Positions 2,749 to 56,279 of a stretch of DNA of 61,634 nt are shown here, piece by piece (the stretch's first letter is position 1; the number at the start of each line of letters is the position of its first letter). The stretch spans positions 1-61,634 of the forward strand of contig JAHILZ010000016.1 of assembly GCA_018896765.1 (NCBI GenBank). Direction: 5' to 3'. Source of the stretch: Patescibacteria group bacterium. Lineage in GTDB: Bacteria; Patescibacteriota; Minisyncoccia; JAHIHE01. Position numbers and translations under genes: made by a program. The notes beneath the pieces are model-generated. The model worked only from the letters and a program-made list of their open reading frames with translations, was not told the origin of the DNA and searched no databases.

Positions 2749-3315
2749 ATGAAAAGTAATTTAGAATTAGAAAATTATTTAAATCAAACAGAAAAAGAAA
2801 AACAAAATATTTTTGACATAATCTCAAAAGAGAAAATTAATGAGTATAAAAAAGAAATAGAAGATAATAATAAGATAGATTTATCAGATATAAACATAAA
2901 TATATTACATCCCGGAGATAATCTTTATGATCATTATGAAATTCAACAGAAATTGTTTTTAAAATGTAATTCAGATTTTAGTAAAATGATTAATTTGATC
3001 AAAGAGTATAATTATGATCCGAATGATGTTACAATTGATGGATTTCGAGATATTGCTAAAAAAGAAGGTATAGTTTTAGAAGGTAAGTTTCCCTCTTTTG
3101 CTATGACAGATGGTGATAGTGATATTAATTTTATGGGTATAAAAGAAGAGAATGTTATTGAAATGGCAAAAAAATACGCCTTAAAAGAAAACGAACAACA
3201 AAGTGATTTTTCAAACATTGAAGAAGCAGAAAATTATTTAGAAAGCTTAGGGGAAAAATATTTTTTACATGAAGTTGGGCATACGGTTTATAAAAAATTG
3301 AAAATTTTTTTATAG
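2749..3315 (+). CDS. HExxH-motif hypothetical protein, probably 3'-disrupted
   Basis: LHEVGHTVY zinc-metalloprotease-type motif lies just before a TAG stop. Protein-like coding continues downstream (see findings). Confidence 0.4.
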   Translation: MKSNLELENYLNQTEKEKQNIFDIISKEKINEYKKEIEDNNKIDLSDININILHPGDNLYDHYEIQQKLFLKCNSDFSKMINLIKEYNYDPNDVTIDGFRDIAKKEGIVLEGKFPSFAMTDGDSDINFMGIKEENVIEMAKKYALKENEQQSDFSNIEEAENYLESLGEKYFLHEVGHTVYKKLKIFL

Positions 3316-3544
3316 GAAAAATGGAAAAAATTTATAGAAAATAATTTTGATCTTAAAAAAAGGTTACGAAAGTTCAGGAAGATAAATATAATGACGAGGA
3401 ACAAATTCCAATTGATCAGGAATCTTTCGCAGATTATTTTATTGATGTATCAAGCAATGGAAAATTAATTAGCAGATTAGGAGAAAATAATGAAGCAGTG
3501 GAAAAAATAAAATCATTATTAAATAAAAATAAAATTTAAATTTT

Positions 3545-11820: not shown

Positions 11821-11907
11821 AGTATCAAGTATTAAGTATCAGGTATTAAGTATAAAATAAGGCAAAATTAGATTTATACATAATACTTAATACATAATAC
11901 TTAATAC
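11821..11907. repeat. intergenic hairpin built from gtattaagtat words
   Basis: agtatcaagtattaagtatcaggtattaagtata faces tatacataatacttaatacataatacttaatac. Confidence 0.65.
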
Positions 11908-11976
11908 AAAAAAGCGGATTATGTTAATGATTTTTTATTATTAATAAAACTTGTAATTAGAAAAAAAACAATTATT

Positions 11977-19529: not shown

Positions 19530-19640
19530 ATTTTATTTTAATTAACCCGATTTCTAATTGATCTAATTAACCTAATTAAATCTTAATGATTAATTTCTAA
19601 TGATTTTTTGTCATTAGAAATTTGAGAATTGGACATTGAT

Positions 19641-19668
19641 TAGAAATTAGAAATTAGAAATTAGAAAT
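19641..19668 (+). repeat. tandem 7-mer (tagaaat x4) abutting the gdh start codon
   Basis: tagaaattagaaattagaaattagaaat, preceded by the hairpin atttctaatga/tcattagaaat. Confidence 0.8.
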
Positions 19669-19669
19669 T

Positions 19670-20953
19670 ATGTCCAGTAATTCCAACCCTTATCAAAACG
19701 CATTAACTCAGCTGGAAATCGCCGCCGGAGTTTTGAAAATAAACAAAGATATTTTGGAAATTTTAAAAGTTCCCAAAAGAATTTTAAAAGTATATATTCC
19801 GGTGCGGATGGATGACGGAAGCATTAAAAATTTCGAAGGATTCAGAGTCCAGCACAATGACGCGCGCGGGCCTTTTAAAGGCGGAATTCGGTTTTCGCCG
19901 GAAGTTTCAATGGATGAAGTGATGGCGCTTTCAATGTGGATGACATGGAAGACGGCGGTAGTCGGAGTTCCTTATGGCGGAGCCAAAGGCGGAGTGATTG
20001 TGGATACCAAGAAATTATCAAAAGGGGAGCTGGAAAGATTATCCCGCGGCTATGCGCGCGCGGTGCATAAATTTATCGGGCCCAATATTGACGTGCCGGC
20101 GCCGGATATGTACACCACGCCGGAAATTATGGCTTGGATGGCGAATGAATATTCAAGAATTGTCGGCGAAAACACCCCGGCATCTTTTACCGGGAAACCA
20201 GTTGAAGTCGGCGGATCGCTTGGCCGGGCGAACTCAACATCAGTTGGCGGAATTTATGTTTTGGAGGAAGCGCTGAAAAAAATTGGAAAAGAAAAACGGC
20301 ATATTACTGTAGCAATACAAGGAATGGGAAATGTTGGCGCTAATGCGGCGAAAATTTTATATAATGAAGATTGCAATATTGTGGCGGTTTCGGATTCTAG
20401 AGGCGGAATAATTTTAAAAGACCAAAGACCAAAGACCAAAGACCAAAAATTAAACATGGAGGGTTTAAATATTTTGAAAGTTTTGGAATATAAAGAAAAA
20501 AATGGCTCGGTTGCCGGATTTCATGGAACAAAAACAATTACCAATGAAGAATTGCTGGTTTTGCCGGTTGATGTTTTGATTCCGGCGGCGCTGGAAAATC
20601 AAATTACTATAAAAAATGCCCATGATATCAAGGCAAAAATAATTCTTGAGTTAGCTAATGGTCCGACTACGCCGGAAGCGGATAAAATTTTAGACGCGAA
20701 AGGAATTTTGGTTGTGCCGGATATTCTGGCCAATGCCGGCGGAGTGCTGGTGAGCTACTTTGAATGGGCGCAGAATCGAATGGGTTATTATTGGGATGAG
20801 CAAGAAGTTAATGAAAAATTAAAAAAGCAAATGATCCGATCATTTAATGATGTTTGGGCGGTTAAAGAAAAATATAAGGTTGATACCCGCGTCGCGGCGA
20901 ATATTCTGGCGCTGGAAAGAGTGGTTAAAGCGATGAAATTGAGAGGGGTGTAG
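19670..20953 (+). CDS. gdhA: Glu/Leu/Phe/Val-family dehydrogenase, probably glutamate dehydrogenase
   Basis: FKGGIRF with the catalytic Lys region, GMGNVG NAD(P) motif, C-terminal YFEWAQN. Confidence 0.85.
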   Translation: MSSNSNPYQNALTQLEIAAGVLKINKDILEILKVPKRILKVYIPVRMDDGSIKNFEGFRVQHNDARGPFKGGIRFSPEVSMDEVMALSMWMTWKTAVVGVPYGGAKGGVIVDTKKLSKGELERLSRGYARAVHKFIGPNIDVPAPDMYTTPEIMAWMANEYSRIVGENTPASFTGKPVEVGGSLGRANSTSVGGIYVLEEALKKIGKEKRHITVAIQGMGNVGANAAKILYNEDCNIVAVSDSRGGIILKDQRPKTKDQKLNMEGLNILKVLEYKEKNGSVAGFHGTKTITNEELLVLPVDVLIPAALENQITIKNAHDIKAKIILELANGPTTPEADKILDAKGILVVPDILANAGGVLVSYFEWAQNRMGYYWDEQEVNEKLKKQMIRSFNDVWAVKEKYKVDTRVAANILALERVVKAMKLRGV

Positions 20954-21193
20954 AAAAAGTTAAAAGTTAAAAGTTAAAAGTTCAAAGTTTTGGGCATTCG
21001 TTTTCAATTTTACTTGGATAATTGGGATAATCCAAGTGGAGTTTATGAAGTCAGAAAGTTAAATTTTTTGTCATTGCTTGCCCCGTTAGATAGTAATATT
21101 CTGCTTATAAGTGTTTGATATAAATTATCTAATGGAGCGAGGAGTCAGCAGACGACGAAGCAATCTCGTGCTTGGGGAAAAATTAAATGAAAT

Positions 21194-23044: not shown

Positions 23045-23124
23045 GTAGAAGGTGGAAGGTGGAATGTAGTTTAATACAATTTTGAATTAATTTGCTACTT
23101 TCCACTTTCTACTTTCCACTTTCT
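23045..23124. repeat. intergenic hairpin of ggtggaa words
   Basis: gtagaaggtggaaggtggaatgtag faces ctactttccactttctactttccactttct. Confidence 0.65.
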
Positions 23125-27364: not shown

Positions 27365-27377
27365 TTTATGAATTATC

Positions 27378-28580
27378 TTATTTTTTTACCGCTTTGGCTA
27401 CCGCTTTGGCTACCGCTTTGGCTACCGCTTTGGCTACCGCTTTGGCTACCGCTTTGGCTACCGCTTTGGCTACGCGCTTATCCAGCGCCGAAGGAATAAT
27501 ATAATTTGGCGCGAGTTTATTTTTTGGCACAAGATTGGCGATGGCATATGCGGCGGCAATTTTTGTTTTATCGGTTATTTCCTTGACGCGCGCGTCAAGA
27601 ATTCCGCGGAATAATCCCGGAAATACAAGCAGGTTATTAATTTGATTGGGATAATCAGAGCGGCCGGCGCCGATAATTTTGGCGCCGGCTTTTTTTGCTT
27701 CTTCGGGAGTAATTTCCCCGATTGGATTAGCAAGAGCGAAAATAATCGGATTTTTCGCCATTGCGCGAATCATTTCACGGGTTAGGATTTTTGGCGCGGA
27801 TACGCCGATAAATACATCAGCGTTTATTAGCGCTTCAGCCATAGTGCCTTGGAAATTTTTTGGATTTGTCAGCGAGGCAAGCTCCGTTTTGTATTTATCA
27901 TTGCCAACCCTTGAATTATATATTGCGCCTTTGGAATCGCAAACTATTAAATTTTTTGCTCCGGCAGCGGTTAAAAGCTTAGCGGTGGCGTTTCCCGCCG
28001 CACCCGCGCCGCACAGAATTATTTTCGCGCCGGCAATTTTTCTTCTGGATAATTTTAAGCCGTTGATGAGTCCGGCAAGAATTGCGATGGCTGTTCCTTC
28101 CTGATCGTCGTGAAAAACAGGAATATCCAGTTCTTTTTTTAATCGCTTTTCTATTTCAAAGCATTTAGGCGAGGCGATATCTTCAAGATTGATCGCTCCA
28201 AAAACCGGCGCGATATTTTTTACGGTTTTAATTATTTCTTCCGTATCCTGAGTGGCGAGGCAAATTGGAATAGCGTCCACATTGCCGAATTTCTTGAAAA
28301 GAATAGCTTTACCTTCCATGACAGGGAGCGCCGCCTCGGGGCCGATATTTCCCAAACCTAAAACTCGCGAGCCGTCAGTGACGATGGCAATCAAATTATT
28401 GCGCGAGGTGTAATCATAAACAGTTTTTTTATCTTTGGCGATTGCGAGGCATACCTCCGCTACGCCCGGCGTATAAGCGCAAGCGAGGTCGTTTTTTGTT
28501 TTGAGAGAAATCTTGCTTTTAATTTCGATTTTGCCTTTATTTTTGAAATGCAATTTTAAGGATTTTTTTCCGTAATTCAT
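27378..28580 (-). CDS. NAD(P)-dependent malic enzyme with (AKAV)x7 C-terminal tail
   Basis: YTPGVA, VVTDGSRVLGLGNIG-type and GAGAAG motifs. The C-terminus is a 12-nt tandem array. Confidence 0.85.
   Translation of the reverse strand: MNYGKKSLKLHFKNKGKIEIKSKISLKTKNDLACAYTPGVAEVCLAIAKDKKTVYDYTSRNNLIAIVTDGSRVLGLGNIGPEAALPVMEGKAILFKKFGNVDAIPICLATQDTEEIIKTVKNIAPVFGAINLEDIASPKCFEIEKRLKKELDIPVFHDDQEGTAIAILAGLINGLKLSRRKIAGAKIILCGAGAAGNATAKLLTAAGAKNLIVCDSKGAIYNSRVGNDKYKTELASLTNPKNFQGTMAEALINADVFIGVSAPKILTREMIRAMAKNPIIFALANPIGEITPEEAKKAGAKIIGAGRSDYPNQINNLLVFPGLFRGILDARVKEITDKTKIAAAYAIANLVPKNKLAPNYIIPSALDKRVAKAVAKAVAKAVAKAVAKAVAKAVAKAVKK
27387..27470. repeat. perfect 12-nt tandem repeat x7 (taccgctttggc)
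   Basis: Seven identical units. They encode AKAV x7 on the minus strand. Confidence 0.95.
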
Positions 28581-36321: not shown

Positions 36322-36402
36322 GGGTAGGTTGTAGTGAGTAATTTGTAGTATTAATTTCTACCCACTACTCACTACTCACTACTCACTACTCACTACTCAC
36401 TA
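36322..36402. repeat. intergenic hairpin; 3' arm is tactcac x6
   Basis: ggtaggttgtagtgagtaatttgtag faces ctacccactactcactactcac... It fills the whole prfB-ftsE spacer. Confidence 0.65.
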
Positions 36403-36406
36403 ACTT

Positions 36407-45192: not shown

Positions 45193-46077
45193 ATGCCTGA
45201 ATTACCGGAAGTTGAAACAATTAAAAATGATTTAGCGGCAAAAATTAAAGGCAAAGAAATAAGCGATGTTAAAATTTTATGGAGAGGCGCTCTCAATATT
45301 TCGGCTAAAAAATTTGTTCAATTGATAAAAAATGCCAAGATATTGAATATTTCGCGGCGCGCCAAGATTTTAATTTTAACTTTGTCCAATAATTATTCGC
45401 TTTTCGTTCATTTGAAAATGACAGGCCAGCTTTTGTACGAATCAGTAATTAAGAATTATTCCTCCTTCGCTAAAGCTACGGCGGACAAGAAATTAAGGAT
45501 AATAATTAAAAACCCTCTTTATAAATACACGCGAGTAATATTTTTTTTCACTGATAAAAGTATTTTGGCATTTAATGATTTGAGAAAATTCGGTTATGTC
45601 AAAATTATTCCGCAAAGCAAAGTTCAAAATTTTATAAATAGTGAAAAATTCGGTCCGGAGCCGCTTGATAAAGATTTTACTTTGGAAAAATTCAAGGAGA
45701 TTTTAAAAAAATATCCAAGGCGACGAATTAAGCAGGATTTAATGGATCCGGCGGCAATTGCCGGCATTGGCAATATTTACGCGGATGAAATTTGCTTTTA
45801 CGCGAAAGCCAAACCAACTAAGCAAATAAACAATTTAACAACTAAACAAACCGAATTATTATTTAAGGGTATCAAAAAGATATTAAGCCGCGCTATTGAG
45901 TTAAGGGGATCGTCAATAGAAAATTATGTGGATGCCGGCGGGCGGAAAGGCGATTATGTAAAAGAGTTAAAAGTTTATGGCCGTGAAAACGAAAAATGCT
46001 TCCGTTGCAAGGGGAAAATTAAGCGCGTAAAATTGGGCGGCCGAAGCTCGTATTTTTGTCCGCACTGCCAGAAGTAA
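45193..46077 (+). CDS. mutM: formamidopyrimidine-DNA glycosylase
   Basis: N-terminal MPELPEVE, H2TH region, C-terminal zinc finger CFRCKG...FCPHCQ. Confidence 0.9.
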   Translation: MPELPEVETIKNDLAAKIKGKEISDVKILWRGALNISAKKFVQLIKNAKILNISRRAKILILTLSNNYSLFVHLKMTGQLLYESVIKNYSSFAKATADKKLRIIIKNPLYKYTRVIFFFTDKSILAFNDLRKFGYVKIIPQSKVQNFINSEKFGPEPLDKDFTLEKFKEILKKYPRRRIKQDLMDPAAIAGIGNIYADEICFYAKAKPTKQINNLTTKQTELLFKGIKKILSRAIELRGSSIENYVDAGGRKGDYVKELKVYGRENEKCFRCKGKIKRVKLGGRSSYFCPHCQK

Positions 46078-46084
46078 ATATAAA

Positions 46085-46175
46085 TCACGAATCAAACTCG
46101 AATTTTATCACTAATAATCGCAAACTATAAATGCTAAATTTAGTGATAATTCGAGATAAAATTCGCGATTGATTA
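46085..46175. repeat. intergenic hairpin
   Basis: aatcacgaatcaaactcgaattttatcactaa faces ttagtgataattcgagataaaattcgcgatt. Confidence 0.65.
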
Positions 46176-46181
46176 GCGACT

Positions 46182-47441
46182 ATGAAAAACATAATCATTA
46201 TACATTATGCCGAGATCGCGCTAAAAGGCGAAAATCGGCGTAATTTTGAGAAAAAATTGGTTGAGAATATAAAGCTTGGACTGAAAAATCTGTCTTGTGA
46301 AAAAATAAGCCGCATTTCTGGCCGAATTTTAATTTATCCAAAAGATAATGCGGAAATAAAGAAGTTTAAAACCGCCCTGAACTATGTTTTTGGCATTTCG
46401 CATTTTTCTTTTGGCTGGGAGATAAGCGCGGATTTGGAGGAAATTAAAATAACTTTAGCAGAAATGCTGAAAAAAAGAATAGCGGGAAATTCTTCAATTT
46501 CGTTATGCGGAGATTATTTTGAGCAATGTCGAAATGCTCAGGATGGCAATTTTATTAAAAAAAAGATTGTTACTTTTCGCATTACCGCGCGGCGCGCTGA
46601 AAAAAATTTTCCAAAAACATCGGAAGAAATTAATCGTGAAATAGGCGAGTATGTACTGGAAAAGTTAAAAGTTAAAAGTGAAAAGTTAAAAGTGAAATTG
46701 AAAAATCCGGATATAAATTGCTTTATTGAAATCGTTGAAGGAAAAGCTTTAATATATTTTGAAAAAATAAAAGGGCAGGGCGGGTTGCCGGTGGGAACAA
46801 GCGGAAAAGTTTTATCATTAATTTCCAGCGGATTTGATTCGCCGGTTGCCGCTTGGCGCTTGATGAAAAGGGGAGCGCGAGTTGATTTTATTCACTTTCA
46901 CAGCTATCCTCGCACAGGTAAAGCATCCATCAATAACGTTAAAAATTTGATAAAAATACTGAATAAATATCAATTCAATTCAACATTATATTTAGCGCCG
47001 CTTTTGGATATTCAGCGGGAAATTTTTTCAAAATGCGAAGAGCGATTGAGAATTATTTTATATCGCCGGTTTATGTTTCGCATTGCCGAAGCTCTAGCTT
47101 GGAAAATCGGCGCCGGCGCGCTTGTGACAGGGGAGAGCTTGGGTCAAGTCGCTTCGCAAACATTGGAAAATATCGGCGTGGCAAACAACGCAGTGTCTAT
47201 TCCGATTTTCCGGCCGTTCATCGGCGCTGACAAAATCGAGATTATCGATGAAGCTAAAAAAATCGGCACCTATGAATTTTCCAGCCAGCCGTACGAAGAT
47301 TGCTGTTCGCTTTTTACTCCGCGCCATCCGGCGACTAAAGCAAGATTGGGACAAGTGGAATTCGAGGAATCGAAATTGGATTCGGAAAAATTGATTAAAG
47401 AGGCGATAGAGAAGATGGAAAAAGTCGAATTCAAAAATTAA
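46182..47441 (+). CDS. thiI: tRNA 4-thiouridine(8) synthase ThiI
   Basis: THUMP region and PP-loop SSGFDSPVAAW. Confidence 0.85.
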   Translation: MKNIIIIHYAEIALKGENRRNFEKKLVENIKLGLKNLSCEKISRISGRILIYPKDNAEIKKFKTALNYVFGISHFSFGWEISADLEEIKITLAEMLKKRIAGNSSISLCGDYFEQCRNAQDGNFIKKKIVTFRITARRAEKNFPKTSEEINREIGEYVLEKLKVKSEKLKVKLKNPDINCFIEIVEGKALIYFEKIKGQGGLPVGTSGKVLSLISSGFDSPVAAWRLMKRGARVDFIHFHSYPRTGKASINNVKNLIKILNKYQFNSTLYLAPLLDIQREIFSKCEERLRIILYRRFMFRIAEALAWKIGAGALVTGESLGQVASQTLENIGVANNAVSIPIFRPFIGADKIEIIDEAKKIGTYEFSSQPYEDCCSLFTPRHPATKARLGQVEFEESKLDSEKLIKEAIEKMEKVEFKN

Positions 47442-50638: not shown

Positions 50639-51956
50639 TATATAATATCATTTGTTCCACTGAAGTGGTTGTTTCATAAAGAGTAGCGATATTTTCACGG
50701 GTTGAATCCAAATAAATATTGCTCCCCCACATCGGATCATTAACTATGTATCCGCGCGAGTCTTTGGCAAAGACCACGACATAGTGGCCTCCGCTTTTTC
50801 CCACAGCTCGTATAAAAACAATTACAGGAAAGCCGTCTTTTAAGTTTGCGTCAATTTTACTCCAATTTACTTTTTGCCGCGTTTCGTTTGCTATAAGGCT
50901 GATACTTCGCCAGTTAGCCGGCCACTTGATCAAGTCAAAAGAAAATAACGGCTGTTTCGCAAGACTGCCTGGAGTAATATTTTCATTGTGATATTTAAAA
51001 AGCATGGCCAGTGACGTGACGGCGCATCCGTAATTTTTCATTGTTGAGCTGGAATTACCGATAGTCGCATCGCCCCAGCGAGGGTCGGTTTGATAATAAT
51101 GCCATAGCGCGGCTACGGGATTTGGCGCCGGCAATAATTGCGCCGCTCGAATTTTATCAAGTTCTTGAGCTTTGGCTTTTTGAAGTTCTTCAATATTTCC
51201 AAGAATTTCTTGTCTTTGCTCTTCAACTCTTTTAAGCAGGTTTTCATAACGTCCCTGCTCGCCTTTTGTTATATCAAAAAGATTTTTTTTGGAAGCGCGC
51301 GCGGAATTTAATGATTCTTTTTCTTGAATGAGTCCGATTTTTAATATATCAATTTCCGCTTTTTTGGAAATCTCTTCTTTTCTATTCCACTCCAATTTTT
51401 CTTTTAGATTTTTTAAATCGATAACCGAAGCGCTGATTTTCCCTTGTATCGATTCCAAACTGTAGTAATTAGTCAAAAAATCAGAAAGGTTATTATTTTT
51501 AAGAAGATTGCTCAATAAATCTTCATTTCCGGAATTATAAATTTCTCTCAGCAGGCTTGCCAAAAATTCTTTTTGTCTGGTTATGTCCTGCCCTTTTCCG
51601 CGAATTTCAGCATTAAGTTTTTCTATTTCAAAAGAAACCTGTTCCAGCTTAATTTCCGTTTGTTTGATTTTTGTTTCGGCGAATTTTATCTCTCCGTCTA
51701 AAAGCGCCATCTGGTTTTCCAAATTAGCCGCCGCGGTTCTTTTTATTTTTACCGAAATCAGATATTCCTGCCTTTGATCTTCCAAAACTTGCCATTGTTT
51801 TTGCCATTCGGAGATTTTGGAATCAAGTTCATCGAGAGTATCGGCTTTGATGGCAAAAGGAAGCAATAAAAGTCCCAGCATTGTCATTGCGAGGAGCGAT
51901 CTTAAAGAGTGACGAAGCAATCTCAGATTAATTTTTTGTAAAATAAATCTTGACAT
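50634..51956 (-). CDS. secreted coiled-coil protein with C-terminal C39-like cysteine peptidase domain
   Basis: Long coiled coil, then NYGCAVTSLAML ... GGHYVVVF. The real start is probably Met 51887 or 51881, since upstream codons are repeat DNA. Confidence 0.55.
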   Translation of the reverse strand: MSRFILQKINLRLLRHSLRSLLAMTMLGLLLLPFAIKADTLDELDSKISEWQKQWQVLEDQRQEYLISVKIKRTAAANLENQMALLDGEIKFAETKIKQTEIKLEQVSFEIEKLNAEIRGKGQDITRQKEFLASLLREIYNSGNEDLLSNLLKNNNLSDFLTNYYSLESIQGKISASVIDLKNLKEKLEWNRKEEISKKAEIDILKIGLIQEKESLNSARASKKNLFDITKGEQGRYENLLKRVEEQRQEILGNIEELQKAKAQELDKIRAAQLLPAPNPVAALWHYYQTDPRWGDATIGNSSSTMKNYGCAVTSLAMLFKYHNENITPGSLAKQPLFSFDLIKWPANWRSISLIANETRQKVNWSKIDANLKDGFPVIVFIRAVGKSGGHYVVVFAKDSRGYIVNDPMWGSNIYLDSTRENIATLYETTTSVEQMILYK

Positions 51957-53752
51957 TTTGATAAAAGTATACTAAACTGGTTAAACCATAAAGGAGGTAA
52001 AATAATGGCAATGATGTCTGAAGAAGAAATAAAAAAGTATTTAAAGGAATGAAAGCAAAGCTTAAAGGATAGCAGGCAAGAAGAGGAAGGTTGGATTTTG
52101 TCATTGATTTGACATTTGGAATTTGTCATTTGACATTTTTTCTCAATCCCTGCCTCAATTCTTTTTAAAACTTTTTCTTTTCCCAGAACTTCGGCAATCT
52201 CAAAAGGGCTGGGCGAGAATTTAACGCCGCTTAATGCGACTCTCAAAGGCCAAAGCGTATCCCCTACTCCCAATTTTTCCATAAGTGAGTTTATGGCGAT
52301 TTCTAAATCTTTTTTATTAAACTTTTCTTCCGGCAAATTTTCTAATATTTTCGCGGTTTCCGCCAGATTTTCTTTGGCTTTTTCCAGTGTTGATTTTTTC
52401 CATTTCAAAAGCGCGGTGTCGTATTGTGGAATGTCAACAAAAAAATATTTTGTCGTTTCCGCGATGTCGGATAATTTTTTCATCCTCTCCTGTTCCAGCG
52501 CTACTACTTTTTTAAGCCAGTCAAAACTAATTTCCTCGCCCGTTTCTTTAACTTTAAATTTTGAACTGTAACTTTTCACTTTTAACTTTTCACTTTTAAC
52601 TTCTTCTATCATTCCAGCTTTAATCAAGTACGGCAAGCATAACTCTGTTAATTTTTCCAATTCCATTTTTCTAATATAATTCCCATTCATCCAATCCAAT
52701 TTTTTCAAATCGAAAATCGCGCCGGATTTCCCAACCTTGTCTAAAGTGAATTCTTTAATCATTTCTTCTCTGGTAAAAATTTCTTTTTCAGTCCCCGGAT
52801 TCCAGCCGAGAAGCAGTATAAAGTTAATGAGGGCTTCAGATAAGTATCCTTTTTCGATATATTGTCCTACCGCCGCATCGCCGGCGCGTTTGGAAAGCTT
52901 TTTCTTGTCCGCGCCGAGAATATTCGGCAGATGAGCGAATAAAGGCGGCTGCCAGCCAAAGGCGCCGTAAAGCATCAAATGAATTGGCGCGCTGGAAAGC
53001 CACTCTTCTCCGCGTATAACATGGCTTATTTCCATTAAATGATCGTCAATTACGCTTGCCAAGTGATATGTGGGAAAACCATCTGATTTTTGAAGAATAT
53101 AATCGTCAATTAAAGAATTATTGAATTGTACGGTGCCGCGTATAAGATCATTAAATTCTGTATTGCCGGTAACTGGAGTTTTAAAGCGAATTACGTATCG
53201 CGCGCCTGATTTTATTTTTTCCTCGATTTCTTTTGCGGATAATTCTCGGCATAGTCTATCGTAGCGAGTCGGATGTTTCTTGGCATTTTGCTCGGCGCGC
53301 ATTTTTTCCAGCCGTTCCGGCGCGCAAAAGCAATAATAAGCTTTTTCCGCATCAATAAGCGCTTGGGCATACTTTTTATAAATATCCAAGCGCTCGGACT
53401 GAATATACGGTCCGTAGTTTCCTAAACTTTGAACTTTGAACTTTGAACTTTGAACTTTCGTCATTGCCGGTCCTTCGTCCCAATCCAACCCAGCCCACTG
53501 AAGCATCTCAAGGATGTTTTCCAAAGCGCCTGGCAATATTCTTGCCATGTCCGTATCTTCGATACGCAATAAAAATTTTCCGCTATAATGTTTCGCGGTC
53601 AAATAACCGTAAAGCGCGGTGCGCAAACTGCCGATATGAAGATAGCCCGTGGGACTCGGCGCGAAACGGGTGCGGACTTCTTGCGGCAATAATTTGCCGA
53701 TTAAAATATTTGGTTGAACAATAGTTTTTGTTTCATCTAAAATCGAAATCAT
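51923..53752 (-). CDS. gltX: glutamate--tRNA ligase with repeat-derived insertions and C-terminal extension
   Basis: HIGSLRTA (HIGH) and KLSKR (KMSKS) motifs. At 609 aa, it has about 70 extra C-terminal residues plus two K/V/S/Q-rich inserts. Confidence 0.9.
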   Translation of the reverse strand: MISILDETKTIVQPNILIGKLLPQEVRTRFAPSPTGYLHIGSLRTALYGYLTAKHYSGKFLLRIEDTDMARILPGALENILEMLQWAGLDWDEGPAMTKVQSSKFKVQSLGNYGPYIQSERLDIYKKYAQALIDAEKAYYCFCAPERLEKMRAEQNAKKHPTRYDRLCRELSAKEIEEKIKSGARYVIRFKTPVTGNTEFNDLIRGTVQFNNSLIDDYILQKSDGFPTYHLASVIDDHLMEISHVIRGEEWLSSAPIHLMLYGAFGWQPPLFAHLPNILGADKKKLSKRAGDAAVGQYIEKGYLSEALINFILLLGWNPGTEKEIFTREEMIKEFTLDKVGKSGAIFDLKKLDWMNGNYIRKMELEKLTELCLPYLIKAGMIEEVKSEKLKVKSYSSKFKVKETGEEISFDWLKKVVALEQERMKKLSDIAETTKYFFVDIPQYDTALLKWKKSTLEKAKENLAETAKILENLPEEKFNKKDLEIAINSLMEKLGVGDTLWPLRVALSGVKFSPSPFEIAEVLGKEKVLKRIEAGIEKKCQMTNSKCQINDKIQPSSSCLLSFKLCFHSFKYFFISSSDIIAIILPPLWFNQFSILLSKCQDLFYKKLI

Positions 53753-53756
53753 AAGC

Positions 53757-53815
53757 TGATATTAGATATTAGATATTAGATGCTAAGACAAAATATCTAA
53801 TATTCAGTATCAAAT
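53757..53815. repeat. intergenic hairpin of gatatta words
   Basis: gatattagatattagatattagatgc faces atatctaatattcagtatc. Confidence 0.6.
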
Positions 53816-56120: not shown

Positions 56121-56260
56121 GATTCAGTAACTTTAAACTTTTAGCTTTACCCTGTTAAATTTGTCTTGCAACTATTTAACAAGGCGCAACTTTGAATTTT
56201 GCATTTTGAACTTTGAACTATTTATAGATTGCTTCGTCGCTTCGGCTCCTCGCAATGACA
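56121..56260. repeat. left arm of perfect 140-bp inverted repeat
   Basis: Exact reverse complement of 61495-61634, verified base by base. Confidence 0.95.
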
Positions 56261-56279
56261 GAAAATTAACTATAATTTT

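Follow-up and report, generated by a model that had tools for sequence, protein, structure and literature searches.

A 30-nt GC-rich stem-loop unit lies in frame in an expanded loop of Fpg/MutM in a Patescibacteria genome and recurs across bacterial phyla

Several classes of short repeats that can enter bacterial genes have been described. Rickettsia palindromic elements (RPEs), as far as they are presented in later papers that cite the original report (Ogata et al., 2000, via PMC10969869 and PMC3733652), are about 150 bp long and fall into ten families; they number 44 copies in R. conorii, are confined to Rickettsia and carry a CGTC end. Repetitive extragenic palindromic sequences (REPs) are GTAG/CGTC-tagged units of 20-40 nt with a stem of 6-13 bp and, in many families, a loop of 2-3 nt; some families are common to distant taxa, including the Planctomycetes-Verrucomicrobia-Chlamydiae (PVC) group, and intragenic copies are occasional, many of them in repair genes (PMC3733652). 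[quoted passage not shown] Palindromic amphipathic repeat coding elements (PARCELs) are 25-residue tandem units in open reading frames (ORFs) without known function, many of which carry membrane-targeting sequences (PMC2996958). Heptanucleotide tandem repeats are represented by TAACTGA of Beggiatoaceae (PMC4679880), and heptamer enrichment has also been reported (PMC4692102). The present analysis concerns a 30-nt GC-rich unit at 45460-45489 (forward strand) inside the mutM/fpg gene on contig JAHILZ010000016.1 of a groundwater Patescibacteria genome (candidate phyla radiation, CPR; assembly GCA_018896765.1; about 36% G+C). The whole stretch of 61,634 nt is called the window, P-numbers denote Fpg homologue proteins, and L-numbers denote loci from other genomes. 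A first-pass annotation had regarded the region as an RPE-like palindromic insert. The results presented here indicate that 45460-45489 is probably a fossil copy of a GC-rich stem-loop repeat, short, low in copy number and found across phyla, which has been passively inherited in a permissive loop of Fpg.

The unit, TCCTCCTTCGCTAAAGCTACGGCGGACAAG, begins in codon phase 0, comprises ten codons with 57% G+C and codes for residues S90-K99 (SSFAKATADK); the reading frame is preserved, as the first-pass annotation had stated, and the insert is most probably translated. The host gene (45193-46077, forward strand) is intact and encodes a protein of 294 aa. All three domains of the Fpg/MutM family were detected in it (Pfam: Fapy_DNA_glyco, 3.5e-29; H2TH, 7.7e-24; zf-FPG_IleRS, 2.5e-09), and the residues P2, E3, K58, R131 and F133, along with the four zinc-finger cysteines Cys269/272/289/292, are invariant or nearly so in alignment A1. 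The protein matches crystallised Fpg proteins at E ~1e-48. Its AlphaFold2 (AF2) model, built with 59 homologues, has a mean predicted local distance difference test (pLDDT) score of 92.7 and superposes with a target-normalised template modelling (TM) score of 0.93 on L. lactis Fpg (1pm5) and on MutM (2f5q, 1r2y). The ten-residue block means of pLDDT decrease to 73, 63 and 80 across residues 81-110, with the value of 63 at residues 91-100, and exceed 90 elsewhere. After HLKMTGQ and before the RVIFFF strand, 20-23 residues are without counterpart in the crystallised proteins. According to the model, these extra residues are predicted to form the loop that joins two strands of the N-terminal beta-sandwich; judged by homologue lengths and pLDDT, the whole expanded loop occupies 45430-45528 (forward strand), from strand E78-83 to strand E113-119. 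Alignment with Fpg orthologues and structures, the check proposed in the first-pass annotation, thus places the insert between these two strands.

The length of this loop varies from 13 to 73 aa (117 motif-matched proteins of the 120 homologues listed). The shortest Patescibacteria Fpg proteins have a loop of 13 aa, and a 284-aa clade, 55-79% identical to the window protein and including its nearest orthologues (73-79%), has a loop of 26 aa. Among the 120 homologues compared, a 36-aa loop was found only in the window protein and its 99% identical twin P0001, and that of P0002 is longer still. About 13 of the extra residues, which correspond to the AT-rich flanks of the unit, are common to the whole 284-aa clade. 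In alignments A2/A3, comprising five to six loci, a clean gap of 30 nt at 45460-45489 was observed in L184, L185, L002, L004 and L005, and the lineage-specific part relative to the closest orthologues amounts to these 10 residues only. The earlier count of about 25 extra residues between the Fpg blocks compares with 20-23 found against crystallised Fpg, and only 10 of them are new with respect to the closest orthologues. The same boundaries were visible in four metagenome runs mapped on the gene, in which the contig depth over 45440-45499 increased 5- to 20-fold and many contigs diverged from the window exactly at 45459/45460 and 45492. The depth spike and the break points independently confirm the 30-nt unit, and the spike indicates that the unit is multi-copy in metagenomes.

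To describe the distribution of the unit, one genome per species (GTDB r232) was scanned with the 21-nt pattern GCNNAAGCTACGGMGGACAAG, which returned at least 120 matches, compared with about 9 expected by chance according to rough arithmetic. At least 120 stretches contain the 30-nt consensus, TCCKCCTTCGCTRAAGCTACGGMGGACAAG, whose ends are the same from copy to copy and whose flanks are unrelated. The 9 nt located 5' of the pattern, outside the query, follow the conserved sequence TCC K CC T Y C, with 1.2-1.9 bits at seven positions and 0.4 and 0.7 bits at the two variable ones, whereas the sequence logo carries about 0 bits from -30 to -3 and from +31 on. The 9 nt of the window agree with TCC K CC T Y C, and the ends of the insert coincide with the information boundaries of the family. 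An nhmmer profile built from 121 units of other genomes matched the window at 45460-45489 over model positions 1-30 (41.4 bits, E = 6.4e-12), which places all 30 positions of the insert within the TCCKCC...GGMGGACAAG unit. The insert belongs to this family, and what the orthologues delimit in the window is exactly the 30-nt unit. These matches bear directly on the simplest alternative, an ordinary lineage-specific growth of the loop in which the ten residues arose by local slippage or duplication and are unrelated to sequences elsewhere. The wide range of loop lengths among relatives, the slippage-prone heptamer array in the flanks and the uniqueness of the core within the window would all suit such an origin. 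It is nevertheless very unlikely and has already been largely refuted by the cross-genome matches, because all 30 nt, including the 9 outside the query, recur in at least 120 unrelated contexts; moreover, an insert of 57% G+C stands in a genome of about 36% G+C, and the flanks contain no possible template.

Among the matches listed, the hosts include Nomura-, Magasaniki-, Doudna- and Saccharibacteria and Paceibacterota, Opitutaceae and other Verrucomicrobiota, Kiritimatiellia, Lentisphaeria, Pirellulales and Sedimentisphaerales, as well as Acidobacteriota, Chitinophagales, Ignavibacteria and alpha- and gammaproteobacterial metagenome-assembled genomes (MAGs), among others. In L023 the unit corresponds to a clean 10-residue gap relative to E. 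coli YchF, just past the P-loop helix, and in L055 the TGT insert includes the unit. Further copies were recognised by inspection in RlmN-, AlaRS-, LeuRS-, RluD-, GrpE-, L7/L12-, S1-, E2- and trigger-factor-like ORFs. Four of the six reading frames of the unit are open. The genic and intergenic copies were counted in low-GC loci, because long ORFs seldom arise there spuriously; of the 44 copies in these loci, 20 are outside any ORF of 120 codons or more, and 18 of the 24 genic copies use the frame of SSFAKATADK (+0), with none in frame +1. In L050, L076, L067 and L121, arrays were observed in which 18 nt from the left and 12 nt from the right of the unit are iterated separately. The consensus forms a stem-loop with a 6-bp stem TCCKCC/GGMGGA (TCCGCC/GGCGGA or TCCTCC/GGAGGA), a 14-nt loop and a CAAG tail, and the two versions of the hairpin reach -11.6 and -10.3 kcal/mol. 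The window copy mixes both versions, contains a T:C mismatch and reaches -5.8 kcal/mol. At stem position 4 versus 23, the pairs G-C and T-A occur 45 and 31 times, and the combinations T-C, A-C and others 28, 12 and 5 times.

Near-identity across phyla, synonymous positions included, together with the strong bias to one frame and one strand in genes and the covarying stem positions, could also mean that the unit was retained for a function, either of the peptide SSFAKATADK as a linker or interaction tag or of the RNA hairpin as a regulatory or stability element. The conservation would then result from function and not from recent spread, and the TCCTCC/GGAGGA subfamily does resemble, when its letters are read, an anti-Shine-Dalgarno/Shine-Dalgarno pair. 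We regard this as improbable. The host proteins and the insertion points are unrelated, nearly half of the copies are intergenic, and close orthologues of the window gene do without the unit; in the window copy itself the stem is broken and the inserted residues fall in the block of lowest pLDDT.

Within the window, the core has no other match at up to 3 mismatches, whether searched as a 26-mer or as a 15-mer, and after 45460-45489 nothing in the 61.6 kb matched the profile better than E = 7. In metagenome run X1, the contig of this genome has a depth of 50.8, and the four other unit-bearing contigs have depths of 2.5, 3.7, 4.2 and 28. Because these depths differ from 50.8, the genome probably holds a single copy. 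The first-pass annotation had itself named uniqueness of the core in the genome as the outcome that would refute the RPE-like reading; uniqueness is what was found in the window and, probably, in the genome, so that by this test of its own the reading fails. The likeness to the intergenic repeats of the window, which was also claimed, was not confirmed, as the core is unrelated to any other window sequence.

The flanks of the unit are of a different nature. In the window the loop reads CAGTAAT TAAGAAT TAT (30 nt) AAAT TAAGGAT AATAATT, with a 5' remnant at 45443-45459 (CAGTAAT TAAGAAT TAT) and a 3' remnant at 45490-45507 (AAAT TAAGGAT AATAATT), both on the forward strand; the former is recognised from the empty-site orthologues and lag-7 periodicity, the latter from the same evidence and direct repeat D1. 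The empty-site loci L184/L185 contain CAGGAAT TAAGAAT CAGGAAT TAGGAAT, and L002 contains (GAATTAT)x3. Once the unit is removed, the window loop shows a lag-7 identity of 0.55 and a lag-14 identity of 0.61 (shuffle p = 0.012); in L002 the lag-7 identity is 0.60 (p < 0.0005), and no signal of 7-nt periodicity was obtained in L004/L005. D1, AGTAATTAAGAATTAT at 45444-45459 and AGAAATTAAGGATAAT at 45488-45503, is 81% identical, and its spacing of 44 nt (30 + 14) follows from the interruption of the heptamer array by the 30-nt insert, since deletion of 45460-45489 brings the heptamer phase back. The flanks are therefore a decayed 7-nt tandem array belonging to an older, clade-wide extension of the loop.

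This arrangement leaves little room for a palindromic element of about 90 nt, with AT-rich inverted arms around a GC core, akin to the intergenic repeats of the window and inserted whole in the manner of an RPE. An insertion in frame would be expected of such an element, a weak complementarity of the arms can be read (10 nt with a 2-nt indel), and heptamer arrays resembling the flanks do occur between genes and in gdh, gltX and thiI. However, orthologues without the core possess both arms, so the empty-site orthologues refute the element. The gapless repeat search did not return the arms proposed earlier, aattattcct and aaggataataatt, and found direct and not inverted repeats in the flanks; the 111-nt region folds no better than its shuffles (z = 0.19, with 117 of 200 shuffles equal or better); and no other sequence in the window is related to the core. 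Insertion of the whole 90 nt is thus highly improbable.

Four assemblies contain the insert; three belong to the same species (NCBI MAG, ENA and JGI) and one to the close relative L001, which encodes P0002. Near the insert site L001 is 96-98% identical to the window at the nucleotide level, and it has 33 more nt within the unit, after unit position 11, which open with a copy of the first 10 nt of the unit. This gain of 33 nt is a recent change in L001. The extra 33 nt were also considered as a separate family and rejected as such, as a metagenome scan with TCCTCCTTCGTCAAN{3,8}CGAACG gave 43 matches, all of them chance or ordinary coding sequence. An artefact of assembly or a chimera of metagenomic contigs might be suspected from the fact that the genome matches listed are all MAGs or uncultured bacteria and that Logan contigs break at the unit. 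Against this stand the presence of the insert in frame in four other assemblies that differ in source and assembler, the reading frames that run through it into homologous protein on both sides, and the existence of natural sequence variants of the unit, which together leave an artefact almost no probability.

Identity between the window and L001 is 91-98% at first, falls to 55-73% over the 3' part of fpg (45801-46000) and falls again, to 49%, within thiI (46301-46385), a mosaic that suggests recombination between lineages. It may accordingly be asked whether the unit moved within this genome at all, or whether recombination with a different lineage brought in the filled allele or a short patch with the unit, or repair copied it from a foreign template. 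The contrast between the region near the insert and 45801-46000, the single copy in the genome and the presence of the unit on 9 IMG/VR viral contigs (10 stretches) are in line with such a transfer. It is rather unlikely, as it leaves the first entry of the unit into fpg unexplained and as both flanks are native heptamer-array sequence common to the orthologues.

Other relatives carry GC-rich inserts of differing kinds at differing points of the same loop. The insert of P0009/P0016 (PQKKTAGQAG; locus L140) is a 27-nt perfect hairpin followed by CAAG, CCCCGCA-N9-TGCGGGG-CAAG (-12.3 kcal/mol), which lies at the 5' edge of the heptamer array and differs from the 30-nt unit in both sequence and loop position. 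The loop of P0021/P0025 contains TPPAGG, those of P0043/P0070/P0077 contain VIPA..AGIQ..GMT-type motifs (VIPAKAGIQ...SGSRVKPGMT), that of P0106 contains RHPELVSGS, and that of P0110 contains a 48-aa GC-rich composite including the palindrome TCCGCCAGCTGGCGGA and the tail ACGGAGGATAAA. Both VIPAKAGIQ...SGSRVKPGMT and RHPELVSGS are motifs that we take to be recurrent in hypothetical proteins of metagenomes, and therefore other short repeat families probably share the Fpg loop. By these comparisons the loop, which tolerates insertions, is an insertion hot spot in Patescibacteria, and the 30-nt insert marks it as a loop that accepts 13 to 73 residues.

Taken together, the data favour the following course of events. 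One copy of the repeat would have entered the heptamer-derived, AT-rich segment in an ancestor common to the L001 lineage and the species of the window, at a time when this segment had already lengthened the hairpin loop of the N-terminal beta-sandwich. The insert would add only ten hydrophilic residues to an insertion-tolerant loop and so leave the gene intact; the copy may have persisted owing to its length of 30 nt, the lack of stops in that frame and its translation into ten hydrophilic residues that the fold tolerates. The stem is already degraded, with a T:C mismatch, and the copy would now be inherited passively and be presumably neutral. The most plausible route is a mechanism acting on single-stranded DNA and recognising hairpins, of the REP/RAYT (REP-associated tyrosine transposase) or IS200/IS605 type, with selection keeping only the tolerated frame. 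Such a mechanism is favoured because the unit has sharp ends, a hairpin and a strand bias and lacks TIRs and a target duplication.

A number of observations weigh against this interpretation, in which the family would spread as mobile DNA. The unit is present once in 61.6 kb, with no sign of proliferation, and 821 kb around the seeds contained 8 extra copies only, 5 of them within about 150 nt of a seed. No target-site duplication, TIRs or associated transposase were found for the unit, no enzyme has been linked to it, and a low copy number combined with near-identity across phyla is atypical of REP-type repeats. The matches listed all come from MAGs or uncultured bacteria, and BLAST searches of PLSDB plasmids with both subfamily consensuses and of GenBank phages with the window unit gave no real match, the sole one being a chance match of 23 nt in Sinorhizobium. 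The partial covariation of the stem could equally reflect two subfamilies and not selection for pairing. No empty allele was detected in the cluster of proteins that share at least 90% identity with the window protein or in five metagenome runs. Finally, as regards translation, the single metatranscriptome run has fpg contigs on both sides of the insert, broken at the unit, and none spans it.

It is possible, though we consider it doubtful, that the family represents an undescribed class of mini-inserts, a low-copy stem-loop that passes between uncultured members of many phyla (Patescibacteria, the PVC group, Acidobacteriota, Bacteroidota and Proteobacteria) that prefers one gene frame and strand. 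This would imply either a broad-host-range machinery working on a 30-nt substrate or a conserved process of templated insertion. AT-rich heptamer arrays may serve as landing pads. Heptamer arrays occur within 120 nt of 12 of 107 unit matches, compared with 13 of 535 control positions; a link between the unit and the arrays was dismissed on these counts, as about half of the units are intergenic, which alone predicts roughly that enrichment. Should the family prove real and mobile, tiny repeats would colonise essential genes in frame widely among uncultured bacteria and not only in Rickettsia, a 30-nt sequence nearly unchanged between phyla would serve as a marker of DNA exchange, and a handle on the mechanism of mobilisation would be available. 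Such units also account for many odd low-complexity stretches in MAG proteins (SSFAKATADK, PPSLKLRRT, LVRRSFSEGG) and for spurious small ORFs.

Apart from the unit, the repeats of the window are dominated by 7-nt arrays, with 12 runs (440 nt) compared with 0-1 runs for periods 5, 6, 8 and 9. The arrays are located at 11876-11908, 19635-19673, 20414-20454, 20952-20991, 23095-23124, 36356-36405, 46658-46697, 52569-52602, 53421-53462, 53754-53786, 56191-56219 and 61536-61564, and their units include AAAGTTA, ACTACTC, AATTAGA and AAGACCA. Many of them face a reverse-complement array and form long hairpins, as at 22823-22857/22905-22935 and 23037-23066/23095-23128. Arrays lie in frame in gdh (20414-20454, forward strand; ORF 19658-20953, ELFV_dehydrog), in gltX (52569-52602 and 53421-53462, reverse strand; ORF 51923-53761, tRNA-synt_1c) and in thiI (46658-46697, forward strand; ORF 46182-47441, Pfam ThiI), where they produce a peptide periodicity of 7 residues, in thiI EKLKVKSEKLKVKLKN. 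The ThiI protein of the window has 419 aa; those of four close relatives have 394-407 aa, and that of L140 has 417 aa. The suggestion of the first-pass annotation that repeats colonise essential enzymes in frame is thus borne out in part: the 30-nt family occurs, often in frame, in housekeeping genes, and heptamer arrays occur in gdh, gltX and thiI, which that annotation had named as further cases, but the latter arrays are not the 30-nt unit.

Further features were noted in the window and in other loci. The spacer between the stop of fpg and the start of thiI is filled by a long imperfect hairpin (46085-46179; 45-nt arms, 76% complementary, 5-nt loop). At 27375-27497 a perfect 12-nt tandem repeat, TACCGCTTTGGC, is present in about 8 copies and would read (AKAV)n on the reverse strand if coding. 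An inverted repeat of 144 nt, 99% complementary, occupies 56121-56264 and 61491-61634, with 5.2 kb between the arms and the second arm ending at the last base of the window; it could bound a mobile or invertible segment. The cumulative GC skew climbs to about 50 kb and then drops, so that a replication origin or terminus could lie at about 48-52 kb. In L103, about 250 nt around the unit form a GC-rich array that contains it, with copies of a ychF-like 5' end (ATGAGTTTATC[T/A]AT[T/C]GGTAT...) on both sides, which amount to an apparent target duplication of about 33-42 nt; the unit of L023 is also near the 5' end of ychF. In L140, an IS200-like Y1 transposase gene (Y1_Tnp; 2873-3343), 7 kb upstream of fpg, was considered as a lead and set aside, as the hairpins that flank it are its own and different and nothing links it to the unit. 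At 14.4-20.9 kb of the same locus, downstream of thiI and one more gene, there is a phage-like block (RecT, NinG, Acb2/Tad1 hairpin domain).

The unit could not be traced to a described family. An Rfam scan of 45400-45550 at E <= 10 returned nothing, the unit sequence on both strands and four of its reading-frame peptides occur in no paper of the searched literature, and the REP survey supplements do not contain the unit sequence. The literature search on palindromic or in-frame repeats in Patescibacteria yielded only work on RPEs, REPs, MITEs and PARCELs. The 30-mer family therefore appears to be undescribed so far.

Summarizing, the unit shares features with each of these systems and departs from each of them. 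Like the RPEs, as they are portrayed in the citing papers, it is a dispersed, dyad-symmetric repeat that lies in frame in housekeeping genes, adds a peptide and leaves the gene intact. On the same description, the analogy drawn in the first-pass annotation fails on length (30 nt compared with about 150 bp, or about 100-150 bp as the range for such elements), on copy number (one in the window compared with tens per genome), on the range of phyla and on the CGTC tag, which can be read on neither strand of the unit. Its size falls within the 20-40 nt of REPs, its 6-bp stem is GC-rich, and the window copy lies inside a repair gene. Unlike REPs, however, it ends in TCC.../...CAAG, has GTAG only inside the loop on the reverse strand and no CGTC, is present in low copy number and has a loop of 14 nt. 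The consensus stem reaches -11.6 kcal/mol, one of its pairs covaries only in part, and the window copy is mismatched. No inverted dimers of the REPIN type were present in 122 unit contexts, and no RAYT was seen, though the association was not systematically searched. With MITEs it has in common that both are small interspersed elements with non-coding capacity, able to make in-frame fusions, whereas TIRs, a target-site duplication and the size of MITEs are lacking, the flanking direct repeat being a pre-existing heptamer array. PARCELs are likewise dyad-symmetric coding sequences of sporadic occurrence in distant microbes for which horizontal transfer has been inferred, but the unit is a single 10-residue insert in conserved enzymes and not a tandem tract. 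Heptanucleotide tandem repeats, which also include the STRR sequences of cyanobacteria, resemble the flanks of the unit and the intergenic repeats of the window, where 7-nt arrays are the dominant repeat class; in contrast, the window arrays also lie in frame in the fpg loop, gdh, gltX and thiI, are often inverted pairs and are unrelated to the 30-nt unit. The unit is a short interspersed palindromic repeat in a coding region, unusual among the known systems in its near-identity across phyla and its low number of copies per genome.

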